A stretch of 30,743 bases of DNA, taken from the NCBI GenBank assembly GCA_964539795.1, contig CAZIKS010000006.1, positions 9,738 to 40,480 of the forward strand. The letters are read 5' to 3'. Within the stretch, counting starts at the first letter, position 1; each line of letters begins with the position of its first letter. This document shows, piece after piece, positions 215-17,228 of the stretch. A program made the position numbers and the translations under genes. This DNA comes from an uncultured Pirellulales bacterium. Lineage in GTDB: Bacteria; Planctomycetota; Phycisphaerae; Sedimentisphaerales; Anaerobacaceae. A model generated the notes under the pieces. The model saw nothing but the letters and a program-made list of their open reading frames with translations, did not search any database and was not told the DNA's origin.

Positions 215-1045
215 TTAAACAGCCTCTATTTTCTTCACAAATTCATCTATTATCCACTCAGGAGTCGATGCTCCTGCCGTAACACCTGCTGTTGTTTTAT
301 CAAAAACGCTACTTTTATCAAATTCTTTCCAATTTTGCAAATGAAACGTTTGATTATTATATTTTTTACACAACTCGGCTAGTCGCCGGGTATTGGCGCT
401 TTTCAGCCCACCCAGCACAAACATCACATCAACCCGTTTACAAAGCTCCACTGCTGATTCCTGCCGTCTTATTGTCTCTCTGCACAAAGTATTAATCACT
501 TTCAACTCGCTAAACCCCCATTTCGCTATCGCCCCAAGCATCCTGCTGAATTGTTCCGGCCCCTTCGTCGTCTGGCAAACTACTCCCAGCCTGCCGTTTT
601 TGGGAAGCTTATGCAAATCCGACTTATCGGCAATTACTGCCACATCATCAGCAAAACCCACAACCGCCTGAACCTCGGGATGATTTTCATCGCCGATTAT
701 CACTACTTTATAACCGTCCTGATTGAGCTGCCCTGCTATCTGTTGAACCCTTTTAACCAGCACACACGTCGCATCGATTATATCAAGCCCCCTTTCCCTG
801 AGTTTGGCTATCTGTTTGGGAGCTGCCCCATGAGAACGAATAAGGACCGTCCCGGAAACAATTTCTTCCACATTGTCAACTGTTTTCAGACCCGCTTTTG
901 CCAACCGCTCAACCATATCATTGTTATGGATAATCGGCCCGAGGCTGTAAACCTCTTTTTTCTCAGCCAATATCTTCTCAGCCATACTGATTGCGTTTTT
1001 CACCCCGTGACAAAATCCGCACTGCTCAGCTACTATAACCTTCAT
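215..1045 (-). CDS. ispH: 4-hydroxy-3-methylbut-2-enyl diphosphate reductase (IspH/LytB). The ORF-track frame continues to 1090 (MMILFGKLQADKRLG-), but the IspH-like N-terminus begins at the ATG at 1043-1045.
   Basis: The translation shows the IspH hallmarks: N-terminal GFCHGVKNAI (IspH Cys ligand region), HNNDMV, DATCVLVKRV, ENHPEV, VVCQTT, TLCRETIRRQ, GGLKSANTRRL and the C-terminal GVTAGASTP. Length of about 276 aa is typical. Confidence 0.9.
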   Translation of the reverse strand: MKVIVAEQCGFCHGVKNAISMAEKILAEKKEVYSLGPIIHNNDMVERLAKAGLKTVDNVEEIVSGTVLIRSHGAAPKQIAKLRERGLDIIDATCVLVKRVQQIAGQLNQDGYKVVIIGDENHPEVQAVVGFADDVAVIADKSDLHKLPKNGRLGVVCQTTKGPEQFSRMLGAIAKWGFSELKVINTLCRETIRRQESAVELCKRVDVMFVLGGLKSANTRRLAELCKKYNNQTFHLQNWKEFDKSSVFDKTTAGVTAGASTPEWIIDEFVKKIEAV

Positions 1046-1094
1046 ACCTAACCGTTTATCTGCCTGTAATTTTCCAAATAAAATCATCAAAACC

Positions 1095-1290
1095 GTTATT
1101 TTACACCAAAATCACCATCTATTCCACAAAAACCCGCCAAATAAACCCTGTTCCATCCCCCTCCGAACGCATAAAAAGCCGCAATAATCTGATAGATTCG
1201 CTACCTTCGCCACTACTTTTCCAAAAAATTTAAAAAATTTATAAAAAAAAACGTTATAAAACGAACTTTGCCCGCACTATAGTAACGGCG
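1095..1290 (+). repeat. Intergenic repeat-family copy R1 (diverged), upstream of ispH
   Basis: It shares the ordered modules ccaaaatc..ccacaaaaaccc, gcataaaaagccgcaa and aaaaacgttataaaacgaactttgcccgc with the other copies. Confidence 0.4.
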
Positions 1291-1305
1291 TAGAATAGGT
1301 ACGGT

Positions 1306-3186
1306 ATGAATAACAACAAAGATCAAGATTATGTTGCTCTGGCCGAGCAGGCCAGGCTTGGTGATAAGCCGAGTCTCGACAAACTAACCGAGCTGGTCCA
1401 GCCGAGATTGTACGCCTATGTTTACCGAATCATTCTGCAAAAAAACCTCGCTCAGGATATTGTTCAGGAGGCCCTGCTCGAAATGTTTAAAGTTATAGAA
1501 AACTTGGAAAAACCGGACAGGTTTTGGCCCTGGCTACGGGGTATCGCCTACAACAAAATTCGACTGCAATACGCAAGACAATACCGTCGTAGAACCGTTT
1601 CAATATCGAATCTTCAGCTTGAGGACACACAAAAGGCACGCCAGAAAGGTTTAGCAAGTCTAATGACCCAGGAATTGAGACAAATCGTTTTTAATGCTAT
1701 GCAAAGGCTAAAGCCCCCCCACCGCGCAGTCCTCGCTATGCGATGCTACGAAAACATGGAATATTCCCAAATCGCAGAACTCATGCAGAGAAACGAATTC
1801 AGCGTACGCTCTTTGTTCTTTCGGGCAAAAAGGTCTCTGCACAAACAACTTTCTCGCAGCGGATTTCGCAAAGAATTTTTCCTCACAGCATTGGTTATGT
1901 TTGGCAAAATGACCGCGCCAAGCGAAGCCTCCGCCGCGGAACTCTCCGTAACCGGAGCAACCGTCAATGCTGGCTTCACTGCCAATATGACCGGCCTGGC
2001 AACCAGCACACCCGTAATTATAACCCTCATTACCGCTGGCTTCTTGGGCGTCTGCTCTGTCACCGCCCCGTCATGGATTGATAAACCGATGTCCTGGGCT
2101 GAAAAAACTACTGTTGCGGTTAAAGAAAAATTTGCACAGCATTTGCCTGCCGCTAATCAACTCAACGATACAAAAGAGCTGTGTTGGTATTATTTCCCCG
2201 AAGAAACAACCGGCCCGGTTATGACAAGACTTCTCAAGTGGGACACCCAGACAGAAAAATCTTACCATCAGCTACTCCAAAACGACCGCGCAAACTACTT
2301 CTTCGACAGAACCACCGCAACCGTTTACATCAAAAATCACAGGAACTGGCAATCCAACCTGGCCGTTCAGCGACTCCCAACCGACAGCCTCCACTTGCGG
2401 CAGTTCCTTACAAAAAACGAAAACCAGCCGGACCAAATGCAGTATGTCCCCGCTGAAGGCCGGGCTCTGCTCGTTAGCATAAACCACAACGCCACTCAAC
2501 CACAGTTAACGTATAACTACAACGTTTTGGACGAGGAATACTTTAGATACAGCTTCCCTGATGGAGTAAAAGTTGTCGATAATCGAGACGCTATGCATAA
2601 ACGCGGCTGGACTTATTTCACTATTTCAGGCAATATGGCAGGAAAAAAAGTTTCTGGAAAAGGACGCCTTCCATTCGTTTACCACGCAACCAAACAATAT
2701 CCCCCCTGGCTGAAACTGCGGGTATATGGCCGGATGAACATTCACGATGGTGCCGAAGCAGCATTTATATATGATGATGCCGGCAGGATGCTCGCAAACT
2801 ACCCGACCGGAACTTTCTTCAAGGCTCTAACCCGCCCATGGATGGGACTGCATACTATCGATACGGTTCGAAGGGACGCCGCCGAAAAAAGCATCCCCTT
2901 CGAGACCAAATTCATACCAGCCGGAAATAAAGCCGAAATCGTTCTAAACGCACCGCAAATGAACTTGACTTACACCATCGACTTGGAAAAGGATATTATT
3001 GAAAAAATCATATTCTCAACGCCACAGACAATGGGTCTTTATGGTATGTTGAACTTTTATTATCTCGAGGATATTGACCGGCTTGACGATGACTTTACAG
3101 AGCCTTCCTGCGGCGATTCCACAATGCCGCAGGAAAAAGAAATGCCCCAACTGTGGCTGTTAAAATTAGCTGAACCTGGTTTGTAA
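1306..3186 (+). CDS. ECF (sigma-70 family) sigma factor with a long C-terminal extension. Sigma regions 2 and 4 occupy about aa 1-185. They are followed by a predicted TM helix (VIITLITAGFLGVCSVTAPSW) and a roughly 400-aa extracytoplasmic domain of unknown fold.
   Basis: The N-terminus has ECF region 2 (DIVQEALLEMFKVIENLEKPDRFWPWLRGIAYNKI) and region 4 (PPHRAVLAMRCYENMEYSQIAELMQRNEFSVRSLFFRAKRSL). A single continuous 626-aa ORF was seen and no stop separates the sigma part from the extension. Confidence 0.8.
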   Translation: MNNNKDQDYVALAEQARLGDKPSLDKLTELVQPRLYAYVYRIILQKNLAQDIVQEALLEMFKVIENLEKPDRFWPWLRGIAYNKIRLQYARQYRRRTVSISNLQLEDTQKARQKGLASLMTQELRQIVFNAMQRLKPPHRAVLAMRCYENMEYSQIAELMQRNEFSVRSLFFRAKRSLHKQLSRSGFRKEFFLTALVMFGKMTAPSEASAAELSVTGATVNAGFTANMTGLATSTPVIITLITAGFLGVCSVTAPSWIDKPMSWAEKTTVAVKEKFAQHLPAANQLNDTKELCWYYFPEETTGPVMTRLLKWDTQTEKSYHQLLQNDRANYFFDRTTATVYIKNHRNWQSNLAVQRLPTDSLHLRQFLTKNENQPDQMQYVPAEGRALLVSINHNATQPQLTYNYNVLDEEYFRYSFPDGVKVVDNRDAMHKRGWTYFTISGNMAGKKVSGKGRLPFVYHATKQYPPWLKLRVYGRMNIHDGAEAAFIYDDAGRMLANYPTGTFFKALTRPWMGLHTIDTVRRDAAEKSIPFETKFIPAGNKAEIVLNAPQMNLTYTIDLEKDIIEKIIFSTPQTMGLYGMLNFYYLEDIDRLDDDFTEPSCGDSTMPQEKEMPQLWLLKLAEPGL

Positions 3187-3439
3187 TAAGCCCTTAAAAC
3201 TCTTTTTTAGAAAAACTGATTTAACCTTAAAATGTGAAGGTTGGAGCGAGGCGGTGAGATGGTTCTTCACGGCCCCGCTCCCGTACATGAAATAAAAAAA
3301 GTTCTCGGCGTTATACACAGGACAAATGTCAAAGTCCGAGTGTAACCAATAGTGCGGAGAAAATTCTATTATTATAAAACGCTGCAAACTCGCTTCAAAA
3401 ATCAAGGCTCGCAGGGGCTTCTCTCTGCTTGAACTTATC

Positions 3440-4270
3440 GTGATACTGGCCATTATTATGACCTGGATTGGCGTTATGCTCCCCGTAATGGGTAAAGCAA
3501 GACGCCATGCAAGGACGATTCAGACTATGGAAAATCAGCGACAAATCGTCATTGCCCTCACCTGTTTCGCAACCGACAACAACGGCCGATATCCAGATTC
3601 AGTCGCTACTATAGGCTCTGCCACAAATTGGAACTGGCAGGAGCCTACAATGCTCACTTCTGCCTGCAGGCGCGGTTCGAATGTCAATCGGTCGATGAGC
3701 TCCTATCTCCGCCCCTACATCGAGGATGCAGCTATTATGTTCTGTGCCAATGCCCCCGAAAAATACAAATACCTTCAGCAGGCCTGGGATGCCGCCGAAA
3801 ACTGGGATAACCCCGAAACCCCCTACCCAATGGACCCCGTCATAGGAACATATTGCTTTTACTGGAATTACAAAGGCTTCCTCGACGGACAAAAAGAACC
3901 CTTTAAAGGCCCACACGGCCCGTCCCGAGCGCCCGGAGAAAGCAGTTTGCTTATTAGCGATTATTTCGGCTACGGCCATTGGAGAAACCCCAACGCCTAC
4001 GGAAGCTGTGAAAAATTCGACGACGCCTCCGTCGCATCGGGAACCCTCGTCTCTTCGGATTTCTGGTCCTTTTGTCCCCTTGATGAAAACGCCGGCCTCG
4101 ATACCATCGAACTAAAACTCCACGCCGCCTATACTGACGGCCGCGTCGAACGTTATTCACCCTCGCAAACTATACCTATGAGAGTTTCGATGACTTCCGA
4201 TGGTGCCGTCCCCTATCCCGACTCTCCCGGCCCGGGCATCTTCTACATCCCCCAAAACGCCTTGTATTAA
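3440..4270 (+). CDS. Prepilin-type N-terminal cleavage/methylation-domain protein (DUF1559-like, type II secretion pseudopilin-like). The true N-terminus is upstream of the GTG at 3440. The frame is open from 3353 and encodes ...IKARRGFSLLELIVILAII.
   Basis: The class-III signal-peptide-like motif GFSLLELIVILAII is followed by the ARRHARTIQTMENQRQIVIALTCFATDNNGRYPDS region typical of the PVC-group 'prepilin-like' family. The C-terminal LHAAYTDGRVERY resembles the H-X-DG end motif. No ATG, GTG or TTG occurs in frame between the stop at 3350 and the leader. Confidence 0.7.
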   Translation: MILAIIMTWIGVMLPVMGKARRHARTIQTMENQRQIVIALTCFATDNNGRYPDSVATIGSATNWNWQEPTMLTSACRRGSNVNRSMSSYLRPYIEDAAIMFCANAPEKYKYLQQAWDAAENWDNPETPYPMDPVIGTYCFYWNYKGFLDGQKEPFKGPHGPSRAPGESSLLISDYFGYGHWRNPNAYGSCEKFDDASVASGTLVSSDFWSFCPLDENAGLDTIELKLHAAYTDGRVERYSPSQTIPMRVSMTSDGAVPYPDSPGPGIFYIPQNALY

Positions 4271-4561
4271 ATTATTTCTATAACAAAACCGACACGTCTC
4301 CACAAACCAACTGAAGCCGGTCTGTCTGTGAGTTGTAGTTTAGAATTTATTCTTTTGCCAACGGTATCGAATATACAAAGGTTTGCATCGGACTTTCTTG
4401 AAACAGCACTTGCCGCTATAGATATGAATTTTTGCACACTATGCCCCCACGAGTGGTAATTTTTTCCTCTTAAGTGTTGTTAAAACCAACAAAATATGGC
4501 TGCAAGTACCGATTCAACTGAACTCCCAGCTTATTTAATTCAAATCAAATTAGTGATAAAA

Positions 4562-7102
4562 TTATTCAAAAACCATCAGCCAGTTATTGACAAATACATC
4601 CAGATCCAGCCAATTGATGGAGTTATCAGGAGGAATACTTATATCACAGTCAGGATTATAGCTGGCTTGGCCGTCTTCAGTCAACCAAGCCGCTCCAAAA
4701 GTAGCAAAATCCTCAAAGTCCACATCGCAGTCCGGCTCAATATCGCCGACTATCGGTTCACTCGGTATTTCACCTATGAGCTTCAGGTTCGGCACCGCAG
4801 TGGCAACATACAAACCCGGATTATAGAAATCATCCCAGTACAGAGGGTCGCCGTGCGTACTGTTGCAAAACGCCAACATTACACGCTCGTTGCCCGTGTC
4901 TGAAACCATACAGTACCCGTCCGAACTGTAAAAGCTGTTGTTGTGGCTGAAGTCTATCAACAGATTGCTCGTGCCGTTGTACTCAAACGGCGTCTGGAAG
5001 TGAAAATTCTGCCATCCCGTTGAACTTATTGACTCATTGTTCTGATAGACAACTTTCCATTCGCTCATCTCAACAAACCATGGGCCCGGACCGGAGTAGT
5101 CACTTTTGCTCGTGTGTTTCATTCTGATTGTCCAGTTGTTGAGAGTCTGACCCGGAACTTGGTAAATATCGAGCGCCAAGTCGGTTATAGTTTGCTCGTC
5201 CCCTACATCACTGGACAGATAGATTACCTGCGTTCGGCAATCCTGGTAGTACGTATGTATCGGCCAATATGCGTACGCATTCGTCTGCGGCTCGTACGTG
5301 GTATATATATGATTGTCAACGTCCAATGTGACCGTGGCCGGCGCTGAGTCACCGCCTGTCGGGGATATGCCCCCGTCGTTGGCCTTGAAACAAAAGGTGT
5401 CCTCACCAGCAAAATACGTGCAGGGCCAGTACTCAACGACATTGCCGTTGCCCACGAGCATATAGGGTACACTTATTATCGCACCGGCCCCCGGGTCCGT
5501 CAATCGACCATGTTCGGGCAGCGTAGCTATCTTGTAGCTTAACTGTCCCGGTGGATTCGGTAAACCGTCGTCGGTGGCAATGAGGGTAATCGTCTTGGTT
5601 GTACCTGAAACAGCAGGGACACTCTGGCCGAACGCCGTGGGAGGACCTTCGTTCTGTGAAACGAAATCGATGCCCCATTTATTGCCCGAACTGCTCGAAA
5701 GGTCCGTTGACGTACCAGTGGTAGCAAATTGATTCGAAAAGATATAAGGTGCTTTGTCCGCACTTACCGTAAAGCTCTGCCCTGAAGGCACTTTAACTAT
5801 AGCGTAAATACCCGCCGCATCGCTTGTTCCCTGATAAGTACCTCCTCCGGTTGCTGTCACTACAACATCAGGAATCGGGTTACCCACAAGGTCCGTCACT
5901 CGCCCGCTGATAATCTCCCCCGAACCGCTCGTATACACGTTGTAAACACACTCCTCCAGTATATTGAAAGATGGCGTTGAGTTGACTGTCGGCAGATTGT
6001 ACCATGCATCGTCGTTGCCGCACCAGCCCATATTCACATGATGGTACAGTGTCGAAGAGGTATAGCCGTAACCGTCACAAACAACCGCGTGCCCGCCAAC
6101 CCCTCCCTTGATACCCAGTACCGTCGGTTGTTTGGCATCGAGGTTCGTGTTGACCATGTTTCTCAGCGTTGAGCCCAGGATAGGGTCCTGCGAGTATATT
6201 GAATTGGAATAGCCGAAGATTGCCACTAAATTCGTATCTGCGTAATGCAAATACCCAACAGAACCTCCGGACCCATATATTGTGCCTACGGCCTCGGCCA
6301 CATCATGGCAAAGGCTGCCTATCTCCTGTCTCTGGTATTCCGGCGTGCCTATCAAGGGCTCCAGCGGCATATTCGACCAGGTGTACGAACCTGGATATTC
6401 GTGGTACCGCATAAGTTGAGATGTCGCCGTTGCAACACACCCACAGGGGTAATTTGTGTTGCTGCCATCTGGGCCCGGTGGTGTGTAGTAGTTGTAGCAT
6501 GACTCCATATTGCTGTAACATTCAACATTGCTCTGCCCCCATTTGCTCTGCACAAGCGGAGCTACCCAGACCTCCGACACCGTGGAAAGTCCCAGCGGCT
6601 CAATTACATCTTCTGCCGCCGCCGACAGCTCCTGCCATTTGCTGTTGGCCTTAGCCGCCCGTGCCTGAAGAGCCTCGACGTTCGTCAGTTGTTTCGAAAC
6701 GTTGTCCCTTGCGAGTTCTTTCGCCGTTGCGACCCGGCCGGGAACGTCACTGCTGACCAGCGATCCAAGAGGGTTATCGTCCGAGCTGTCGTAAGTACCA
6801 TCATCAGCAAAACAAATAATCGGCTCAACAAAATCGTCTGCCGGCACAACCACAAAACCGGATGGCTCCAAATAAATAATGTAATAGCTCGGATTGCCCC
6901 TCTCATCGGTAAACGTCTCAATATCGCCAATCTTTCGACCGACAGTTGTACTGAGCGGGTTCACATTGGCTTTGAGCCAGCCTCGTACTGCTCTTCCAGC
7001 CTGCTCTGCTGTCGTTGGCCGGGCCCACAAACTGCCGCAACACAACTGCAAAACTACCAAAAAAACTGTAATCACAGGAATTGTTTTTCCCACTCTTCGC
7101 AT
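4562..7102 (-). CDS. Secreted multidomain cysteine peptidase of family C10 (streptopain/SpeB-like). It has a signal peptide, a C10 propeptide-like region, the catalytic domain, CarbopepD-regulatory-like and Ig-like beta domains, and a C-terminal dockerin-like Ca-binding repeat pair.
   Basis: The N-terminal signal peptide is MRRVGKTIPVITVFLVVLQLCCGSLWA. The SpeB-like catalytic Cys context is CGCVATATSQLMRYHEYP (compare SpeB HCVATATAQIMKYHNYP). The propeptide-like stretch is YYIIYLEPSGFVVVPADDF. The C-terminal DIEPDCDVDFEDFATFGAAWL / DISIPPDNSINWLDLDVFVNNWL pair resembles dockerin repeats. Confidence 0.8.
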   Translation of the reverse strand: MRRVGKTIPVITVFLVVLQLCCGSLWARPTTAEQAGRAVRGWLKANVNPLSTTVGRKIGDIETFTDERGNPSYYIIYLEPSGFVVVPADDFVEPIICFADDGTYDSSDDNPLGSLVSSDVPGRVATAKELARDNVSKQLTNVEALQARAAKANSKWQELSAAAEDVIEPLGLSTVSEVWVAPLVQSKWGQSNVECYSNMESCYNYYTPPGPDGSNTNYPCGCVATATSQLMRYHEYPGSYTWSNMPLEPLIGTPEYQRQEIGSLCHDVAEAVGTIYGSGGSVGYLHYADTNLVAIFGYSNSIYSQDPILGSTLRNMVNTNLDAKQPTVLGIKGGVGGHAVVCDGYGYTSSTLYHHVNMGWCGNDDAWYNLPTVNSTPSFNILEECVYNVYTSGSGEIISGRVTDLVGNPIPDVVVTATGGGTYQGTSDAAGIYAIVKVPSGQSFTVSADKAPYIFSNQFATTGTSTDLSSSSGNKWGIDFVSQNEGPPTAFGQSVPAVSGTTKTITLIATDDGLPNPPGQLSYKIATLPEHGRLTDPGAGAIISVPYMLVGNGNVVEYWPCTYFAGEDTFCFKANDGGISPTGGDSAPATVTLDVDNHIYTTYEPQTNAYAYWPIHTYYQDCRTQVIYLSSDVGDEQTITDLALDIYQVPGQTLNNWTIRMKHTSKSDYSGPGPWFVEMSEWKVVYQNNESISSTGWQNFHFQTPFEYNGTSNLLIDFSHNNSFYSSDGYCMVSDTGNERVMLAFCNSTHGDPLYWDDFYNPGLYVATAVPNLKLIGEIPSEPIVGDIEPDCDVDFEDFATFGAAWLTEDGQASYNPDCDISIPPDNSINWLDLDVFVNNWLMVFE

Positions 7103-17084: not shown

Positions 17085-17228
17085 GAATTTACAACCGTAA
17101 TAAGTCGGAAAATGCCCCTGCAGCCAAAACAAAATATAAATCACAAAACTGCAAAAATCCTAAATCCATAAGGTTGATAAAATCAAAGTCTCTAAAAGAG
17201 TTAACATTTTGAATATACTATTGCCCTA
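17085..17228 (+). repeat. Intergenic repeat-family copy R6, upstream of the Cys-rich gene
   Basis: The sequence is cagccaaaacaaaatataaatcacaaaactgcaaaaatcctaaatccataaggttgataaaatcaaagtc...gttaacattttgaatatac. Confidence 0.7.

Follow-up and report, generated by a model that had tools for sequence, protein, structure and literature searches.

IutY of Pseudomonas putida (ECF243), a sigma/anti-sigma hybrid of cell-surface signalling, consists of an N-terminal cytoplasmic ECF sigma factor which a single membrane span connects to a regulatory domain in the periplasm; two proteases, first Prc and then RseP, cleave it for activation (PMC5411451, PMC8999054). Actinobacterial sigma factors of the groups ECF48, ECF52 and ECF53, e.g. 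SCO4117, bear C-terminal extensions of up to ~400 residues, with an extracytoplasmic domain and either one membrane helix or two; their activation is predicted to be proteolytic (PMC8999054). ECF57 (formerly ECF01-Gob) is a planctomycetal group with long C-terminal extensions and a mean of 5.3 copies per genome (PMC7826278), and is described as having WD40-like repeats together with a pair of conserved cysteines that connects sigma-2 with sigma-4 (PMC8999054). With IutY and ECF48/52/53 as precedents (PMC8999054, PMC5411451), ECF extensions that contain a transmembrane segment are less unexplored than a sequence-only reading of the DNA studied here had held. The general idea of a membrane-anchored one-chain sigma factor is known; the particular family and gene cassette described below appear undescribed. 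Within bacterial signal transduction, no branch is less well understood than that of the ECF sigma factors with built-in sensors; to our knowledge IutY is the only membrane-spanning example dissected so far.

The fused sigma factor and its relatives

The window, i.e., the whole 30,743-nt stretch of planctomycetal DNA analyzed here, contains on its plus strand a complete, uninterrupted ORF (1306–3186) with an ATG start, coding for 626 amino acids plus stop. Its N-terminal 186 residues (aa 1–186) are, judging from domain matches, a predicted functional ECF sigma factor, with sigma-70 region 2 at 1393–1587 (plus strand; aa 30–94, Pfam Sigma70_r2) and region 4 at 1684–1839 (plus strand; aa 127–178, Pfam PF08281 Sigma70_r4_2, E 3e-9). 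The 626-aa protein exceeded the cut-off of the NCBIfam model for the ECF superfamily, TIGR02937 (66.4 vs 42.9 bits). None of the curated ECF subfamily models of NCBIfam scored above cut-off; the best subfamily model, TIGR02989, reached 70 of the 124.6 bits required, and the SigY equivalog scored slightly higher. The only invariant cysteine across 81 aligned members is C147 in sigma-4, and sigma-2 is devoid of conserved cysteines.

The sigma factor and the hydrophobic segment had been read as parts of one uninterrupted ORF, with a frameshift at about 1850–2000 as the error to be feared. The ORF, the domain matches and more than 280 full-length relatives bear out the former. Since three independently assembled contigs (two from JGI metagenomes, one from a Logan SRA assembly) encode an identical 626-aa protein, and since intact full-length relatives exist in the hundreds, a frameshift or sequencing error is excluded, and a fusion created by sequencing or assembly error was rejected. 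The ORF thus codes for a single real protein, and the fusion is widely conserved: 286 distinct full-length relatives of 585–700 aa were collected, and nearly all of the top 120 database relatives are full length, at 45–92% identity. The sigma query gave 1148 matches in the database search. Among species-representative genomes, 367 matches to the sigma-fusion family were found, with several paralogs per genome, and the lineage is Phycisphaerae/Sedimentisphaerales-type Planctomycetota. In one relative (L007/P0007) the reading frame shifts where sigma region 4 ends.

Linkers, membrane segment and sensor domain

Sigma region 4 is followed by a conserved juxtamembrane linker (1861–1995, plus strand; aa 186–230), predicted to be cytoplasmic, whose mean column identity of 0.73–0.74 equals that of the sigma domains and which is a candidate cis-inhibitory or tether element. 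AlphaFold predicted a confident helix at aa 189–202 (pLDDT ~85), and residues L196, F199, G200 and T203 of the linker are invariant. Mutual information with APC over 286 sequences (Neff ~207) yielded no convincing pair linking this helix to the sigma domains, the top pairs being the clade-specific positions 78, 82, 149, 159 and 169. Because of this outcome, we put the helix forward as a cis anti-sigma element only tentatively.

The hydrophobic segment that follows (1996–2070, plus strand; aa 231–255) has many T, G, A and S residues and is predicted to form a transmembrane helix, a call based on hydropathy and on homologs with an export signal. It is the sole hydrophobic peak of the 626-aa protein (Kyte-Doolittle 19-mer maximum of 1.96 at aa ~231–255), and the best hydrophobic 19-mer falls at aa 220–259 in 273 of 286 relatives. 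On the Hessa scale the segment is marginally hydrophobic, with a sum of ~1.7–2.0 (median 1.7) as compared to 6.4 for the next-best segment. Its sequence drifts among relatives while its hydrophobicity is kept; when 118 relatives were scanned for hydrophobic segments above threshold, one was found in 98, two in 16 and none in 4. A hydrophobic helix had earlier been placed at residues 225–247. The single hydrophobic peak stands; it lies slightly more C-terminal, and in the AlphaFold model aa 231–255 are not helical. The positive-inside rule was uninformative on topology, with K+R counts of 1.4 vs 1.7 in the flanks. The stretch of residues 186–260 contains no histidine and one cysteine, which lies within the hydrophobic segment.

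Next comes a linker predicted to be extracytoplasmic and disordered (2071–2172, plus strand; aa 256–289), which shows the lowest conservation in the protein (0.36–0.41) and a pLDDT below 50. The two folded parts of the model are ~80 low-confidence linker residues apart, and the extension does not pack against the sigma part. Taken from hydropathy and homology, these features support a single polypeptide in which one hydrophobic segment would tether the ECF sigma factor to a large extracytoplasmic domain.

The C-terminal domain (2173–3183, plus strand; aa 290–626, ~340 aa) had been described as beta-rich and without recognizable family. The former is confirmed by the predicted structure (pLDDT 83); the latter is true of families, residues 256–626 having no Pfam or NCBIfam match, and untrue of the fold, which is recognizable in the model as LolA/RseB/MucB-like. 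The model has the unclosed beta-barrel (half-barrel) with helices that is a trait of the LolA/LolB/RseB/MucB superfamily. Structural matches share 6–13% sequence identity, and the fold match spans under half of the domain; the Pfam models LolA and MucB_RseB gave no match at E ≤ 0.1. The enrichment in Tyr, Asn and Thr that had also been noted is present and mild (T 8.2%, N 5.7%, Y 5.5%). Invariant motifs of the domain are D425-x-R-D-x-x-H431 and P511-W-x-G-L ... R522-R; the many invariant charged residues (D425, R427, D428, H431, R522 and R523) would be as much in keeping with a polar ligand or a protein interface as with acyl chains or lipid in the cavity.

Short database matches confined to the C-terminal domain were considered as a separate, anti-sigma-like family and rejected, because most of them are N-terminally truncated gene calls starting inside sigma-4. 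The genuine stand-alone forms among them are two distant relatives, P0230, with a signal anchor, and P0256, with a lipobox; neither has a sigma remnant upstream. Since stand-alone homologs carry a signal peptide or lipobox, the C-terminal domain of the fusion is assigned to the extracytoplasmic side.

Comparison with described systems

As in IutY, sigma factor and periplasmic domain form one polypeptide and a separate anti-sigma gene is lacking, making IutY the best functional model. In contrast to IutY, which has a FecR-type anti-sigma domain and is linked to a TonB-dependent receptor for aerobactin, the window protein has a LolA-like periplasmic fold and leaves the cytoplasm ~45 residues after sigma-4, and the partners in its family are a pseudopilin-like protein and a secreted beta-helix protein. 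No FecR-type or related Pfam anti-sigma domain matched the 626-aa protein at E ≤ 0.1, and a gene for a TonB-dependent receptor or transducer was found neither adjoining the window gene nor in related loci.

ECF48/52/53 belong to another phylum and differ also in that sigma-4 is followed by a zinc-binding anti-sigma (ZAS) motif; SCO4117 has, in addition, a proline-rich region and a carbohydrate-binding domain. The ZAS motif H-x3-C-x2-C is absent between sigma-4 and the membrane helix of the window protein, a region without any histidine. The likeness to ECF57 lies in the phylum, the several copies per genome and the length of the C-terminal extension. No WD40 Pfam match was obtained in the 626-aa protein, the extension models as LolA-like rather than as a propeller, and the ECF57 cysteine pair is absent across the 81 aligned members. 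Classification as an IutY/FecR-type hybrid, or as a member of ECF52/53 or ECF57, was rejected, since the defining features tested are missing. ECF263 does not apply either, the window protein and 98 of 118 relatives having one hydrophobic segment.

In the sigma-E/RseA/RseB system (AlgU/MucA/MucB), too, a tether with one membrane span keeps an ECF sigma factor at the inner membrane. There, periplasmic RseB/MucB of LolA fold gates site-1 cleavage, and the sensor domain encoded in the window matches both proteins structurally. The system differs in consisting of three proteins, among them RseA with a full cytoplasmic anti-sigma domain, whereas the window protein is one chain. By analogy, the window protein would thus unite the tasks of sigma-E, RseA and RseB in a single polypeptide. 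A likeness at the level of genome organization is to sigma-I/RsgI of cellulosome-producing clostridia, which form several paralogous autoregulated modules of sigma factor and membrane sensor per genome (see also PMC10575876). These modules adjoin genes of secreted, often dockerin-bearing, polysaccharide-active proteins, and dockerin and beta-helix proteins are also found in cassettes of the window type. The differences are that sigma-I is not an ECF sigma factor and that RsgI, whose sensor modules bind carbohydrates, is a protein of its own.

Partner gene and cassette

Downstream of the sigma gene lies a pseudopilin-like gene (3401–4270, plus strand) with the prepilin motif RRG/FSLLELIV, encoded at 3410–3439, and a head domain of ~250 aa. 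The expectation that a separate anti-sigma gene is missing downstream is borne out: this ORF has no match to any Pfam or NCBIfam family, anti-sigma families included. It had been regarded simply as the next gene. It is indeed prepilin-like; conservation of the neighborhood indicates, besides, that sigma gene and prepilin-like gene are inherited together as members of a cassette, the latter being no bystander. Of 55 informative loci, 47 have a full-length homolog downstream, on the strand of the sigma gene, while the remaining 8, each with at least 5.5 kb of downstream sequence, are devoid of it. In L004 and L005, the gene that immediately follows the sigma homolog has 56% identity to the partner, and the partner family gave 1166 matches, close to the number for the sigma query. 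The homolog in L004 scored above the cut-off of TIGR02532 (17.6 vs 16.3 bits). Solved pilins match the partner at the N-terminal helix only, and positions −1/+1 of the prepilin motif are degenerate in some members, e.g. A/A in L005 and L089.

DNA alignment with the syntenic locus L089 revealed a 58-nt insertion (3293–3350, plus strand) in the leader-coding part of the window's partner gene. The insertion, which ends in a TAG stop and is common to the window and L007, puts the ancestral ATG (3259) out of frame. Candidate starts are ATC at 3401, GTG at 3440 and ATG at 3458; an in-frame ATG, GTG or TTG does not precede the motif.

The cassette usually also holds a variable secreted beta-helix or beta-propeller protein, the ORFs intervening between sigma and partner genes coding for beta-helix, PMP-repeat, dockerin or beta-propeller proteins with signal peptides. 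The window cassette consists of sigma gene and partner gene only; genes in the neighborhood code for IspH, the pseudopilin-like protein, a C10 peptidase and rhamnose functions. An Rfam scan of the whole window, including a conserved hairpin-like stretch between the two genes, found nothing.

Promoter

The sigma factor is predicted to be autoregulated from its own upstream promoter. The ECF-type promoter predicted at 1243–1284 (plus strand) comprises an A-tract (1243–1251), the −35 element CGTTAT (1252–1257), a 16-nt spacer and the −10 element GCACTATAGTA (1274–1284, plus strand), which begins 32 nt ahead of the ATG. The promoter motif of the family reads A-tract, CGTTAY, N16–17, GCACTWA. At a PWM score of ≥14, 68 of the 82 loci (the window counted among them) have this bipartite motif ahead of the sigma gene, with one occurrence per locus. 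Shuffled sequence gave 0.03 PWM matches per 10 kb, and loci left out of the building of the PWM still match, with scores of 33–43 (L017, L041, L045, L067). In nearly all loci that have the motif it lies 17–68 nt from the start codon (125 nt in L072), and the syntenic relative L089 carries CGTTAT-N17-GCACTATAGTA at the equivalent place. In the whole window, 1243–1284 is the only match with a score of at least 14 (18.5); the sole other match of at least 8, at 17223, scored 10.0, which is the level of shuffled sequence. A scan of 1000–4700 for generic sigma-70 promoters and terminators gave counts as expected by chance.

Variants of the −35 element track residues 168/169 of the sigma-4 recognition helix, and variants of the −10 element track residues 78, 82 and 90 of sigma-2, a co-variation which is confounded by the shared ancestry of the clades. 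Paralogs of one genome bear different promoter variants. A second copy of the motif precedes the gene of a signal-peptide protein in L005, L008, L012, L013, L028, L043 and L089. In the window, a second copy was not found, be it at the partner gene, the C10 peptidase gene or elsewhere. Since, moreover, the native start of the partner has been lost, the local regulon may comprise the sigma gene and read-through only.

Mode of activation

We consider it rather probable that the protein is a self-activating unit of sigma factor, tether and sensor in one chain, and that the sigma factor is most likely freed by regulated proteolysis. The cytoplasmic linker (~45 residues) and one weakly hydrophobic segment would tie it to the inner membrane, and a flexible spacer of ~35 residues would connect to the ~340-residue LolA/RseB/MucB-like periplasmic sensor. 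The tethered sigma factor would be inactive, probably in a closed sigma2/sigma4 conformation; since AlphaFold often renders ECF sigma factors compact, the closed state is weak evidence. A periplasmic event, in which the pseudopilin-like partner and/or the secreted beta-helix/beta-propeller protein may take part, would act on the sensor domain. The spacer would then be trimmed, and a site-2 protease would cleave within the G/T/S/A-rich membrane segment. Proteolysis is plausible because of the precedent of IutY (PMC5411451, PMC8999054) and the disordered, unconserved spacer after the membrane segment. Freed sigma factor would bind RNA polymerase and transcribe from the A-tract-CGTTAY-N16/17-GCACTWA promoter before its own gene and, in split cassettes, also from the second copy before the secreted-protein gene, the outcome being positive feedback and production of the partner proteins.

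It is possible, albeit unlikely, that the sigma factor is never freed and recruits RNA polymerase from the membrane, as do ToxR, CadC or VtrA, the promoter of its own operon being kept close through coupled transcription, translation and membrane insertion, and the sensor switching it by a conformational change through the conserved linker. That aa 186–230 are as conserved as the sigma domains would suit signal transmission over a mere tether, and the known targets are all in cis, in an operon which encodes membrane and secreted proteins. However, the ECF reviews PMC8999054 and PMC7826278 mention no membrane-tethered sigma factor, IutY as the only characterized one-chain sigma/anti-sigma protein requires proteolysis (PMC5411451), and a tether of ~45 residues must leave room for holoenzyme formation; besides, the composition of the membrane segment and the disordered periplasmic spacer resemble a protease substrate. 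A soluble extension is far less probable still. Here the hydrophobic stretch would not be a membrane helix, and the C-terminal domain would be cytoplasmic and fold back on the sigma factor (cf. ECF41, ECF42, ECF56), in keeping with the marginal hydrophobicity and the missing helix in the AlphaFold model and with the fact that C-terminal extensions contacting the sigma core are the second most common mode of ECF regulation (PMC7826278). The export signals of the stand-alone homologs, a fold class typical of periplasmic proteins, hydrophobicity that outlasts sequence drift, and the ~80 low-confidence residues between folded parts that do not pack on each other in the model all speak against it. 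That the fusion is an artefact, or the sigma part a non-DNA-binding mimic as in PhyR, is barely credible: the frameshifted relative L007/P0007 would fit an artefact, but the identical ORF in three assemblies and the abundance of intact relatives contradict it, and a decoy is at odds with a conserved cognate promoter that co-varies with recognition-helix residues.

A sensor of the pilin pool or secretion state, which would be a specific version of the signal step of the proteolytic-release model, is a minority possibility in our estimate. The pseudopilin-like partner would be the input, bound by the sensor domain and/or the membrane segment; its incorporation into a fibre of the type II secretion or type IV pilus kind would leave the sigma factor to be freed or degraded to an active form, so that expression of partner and cargo would match demand. 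The kinase PilS senses pilin levels within the membrane and is an established precedent. Partner and sigma factor are co-inherited, with similar match counts (1166 vs 1148), sequence identity is no lower for the partner than for the sigma factor (~55% vs ~45–50%), and the variability of the third gene is what one would expect if cargo were exchanged around a conserved regulatory core. Linkage alone, however, would give co-inheritance also if the partner were a mere target gene, and the degenerate prepilin positions in L005 and L089 as well as the disrupted leader in the window lineage do not favor an input role. It is a speculative proposal, and one we would not expect to hold, that the LolA-like domain together with the membrane segment senses directly whether the partner resides in the membrane or has been assembled into a type II secretion or pilus-like fibre that handles the secreted beta-helix protein of the cassette.

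Implications

The sigma/promoter pairs of the family are compact, numerous and, it appears, orthogonal, and the periplasmic sensor which they bring along differs in fold. Since the target promoter can be read from the sequence, the family is immediately testable by reporters, and it is a possible parts set for synthetic circuits. In Sedimentisphaerales, which are anaerobic polymer degraders of sediments, it links an ECF switch to pseudopilin-like and secreted beta-helix/dockerin proteins; the sigma cassettes may explain how these bacteria choose which surface and secreted proteins to make, and may offer a first functional handle on the expansions of prepilin-like genes in Planctomycetota and relatives. 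If the sensor does read the state of the partner, the cassette would be a self-contained "secretion-coupled sigma switch". A genome would hold several such switches, each run from a promoter variant of its own and apparently insulated from the rest, and the huge, enigmatic prepilin-like expansion of the PVC superphylum would gain its first regulatory role.

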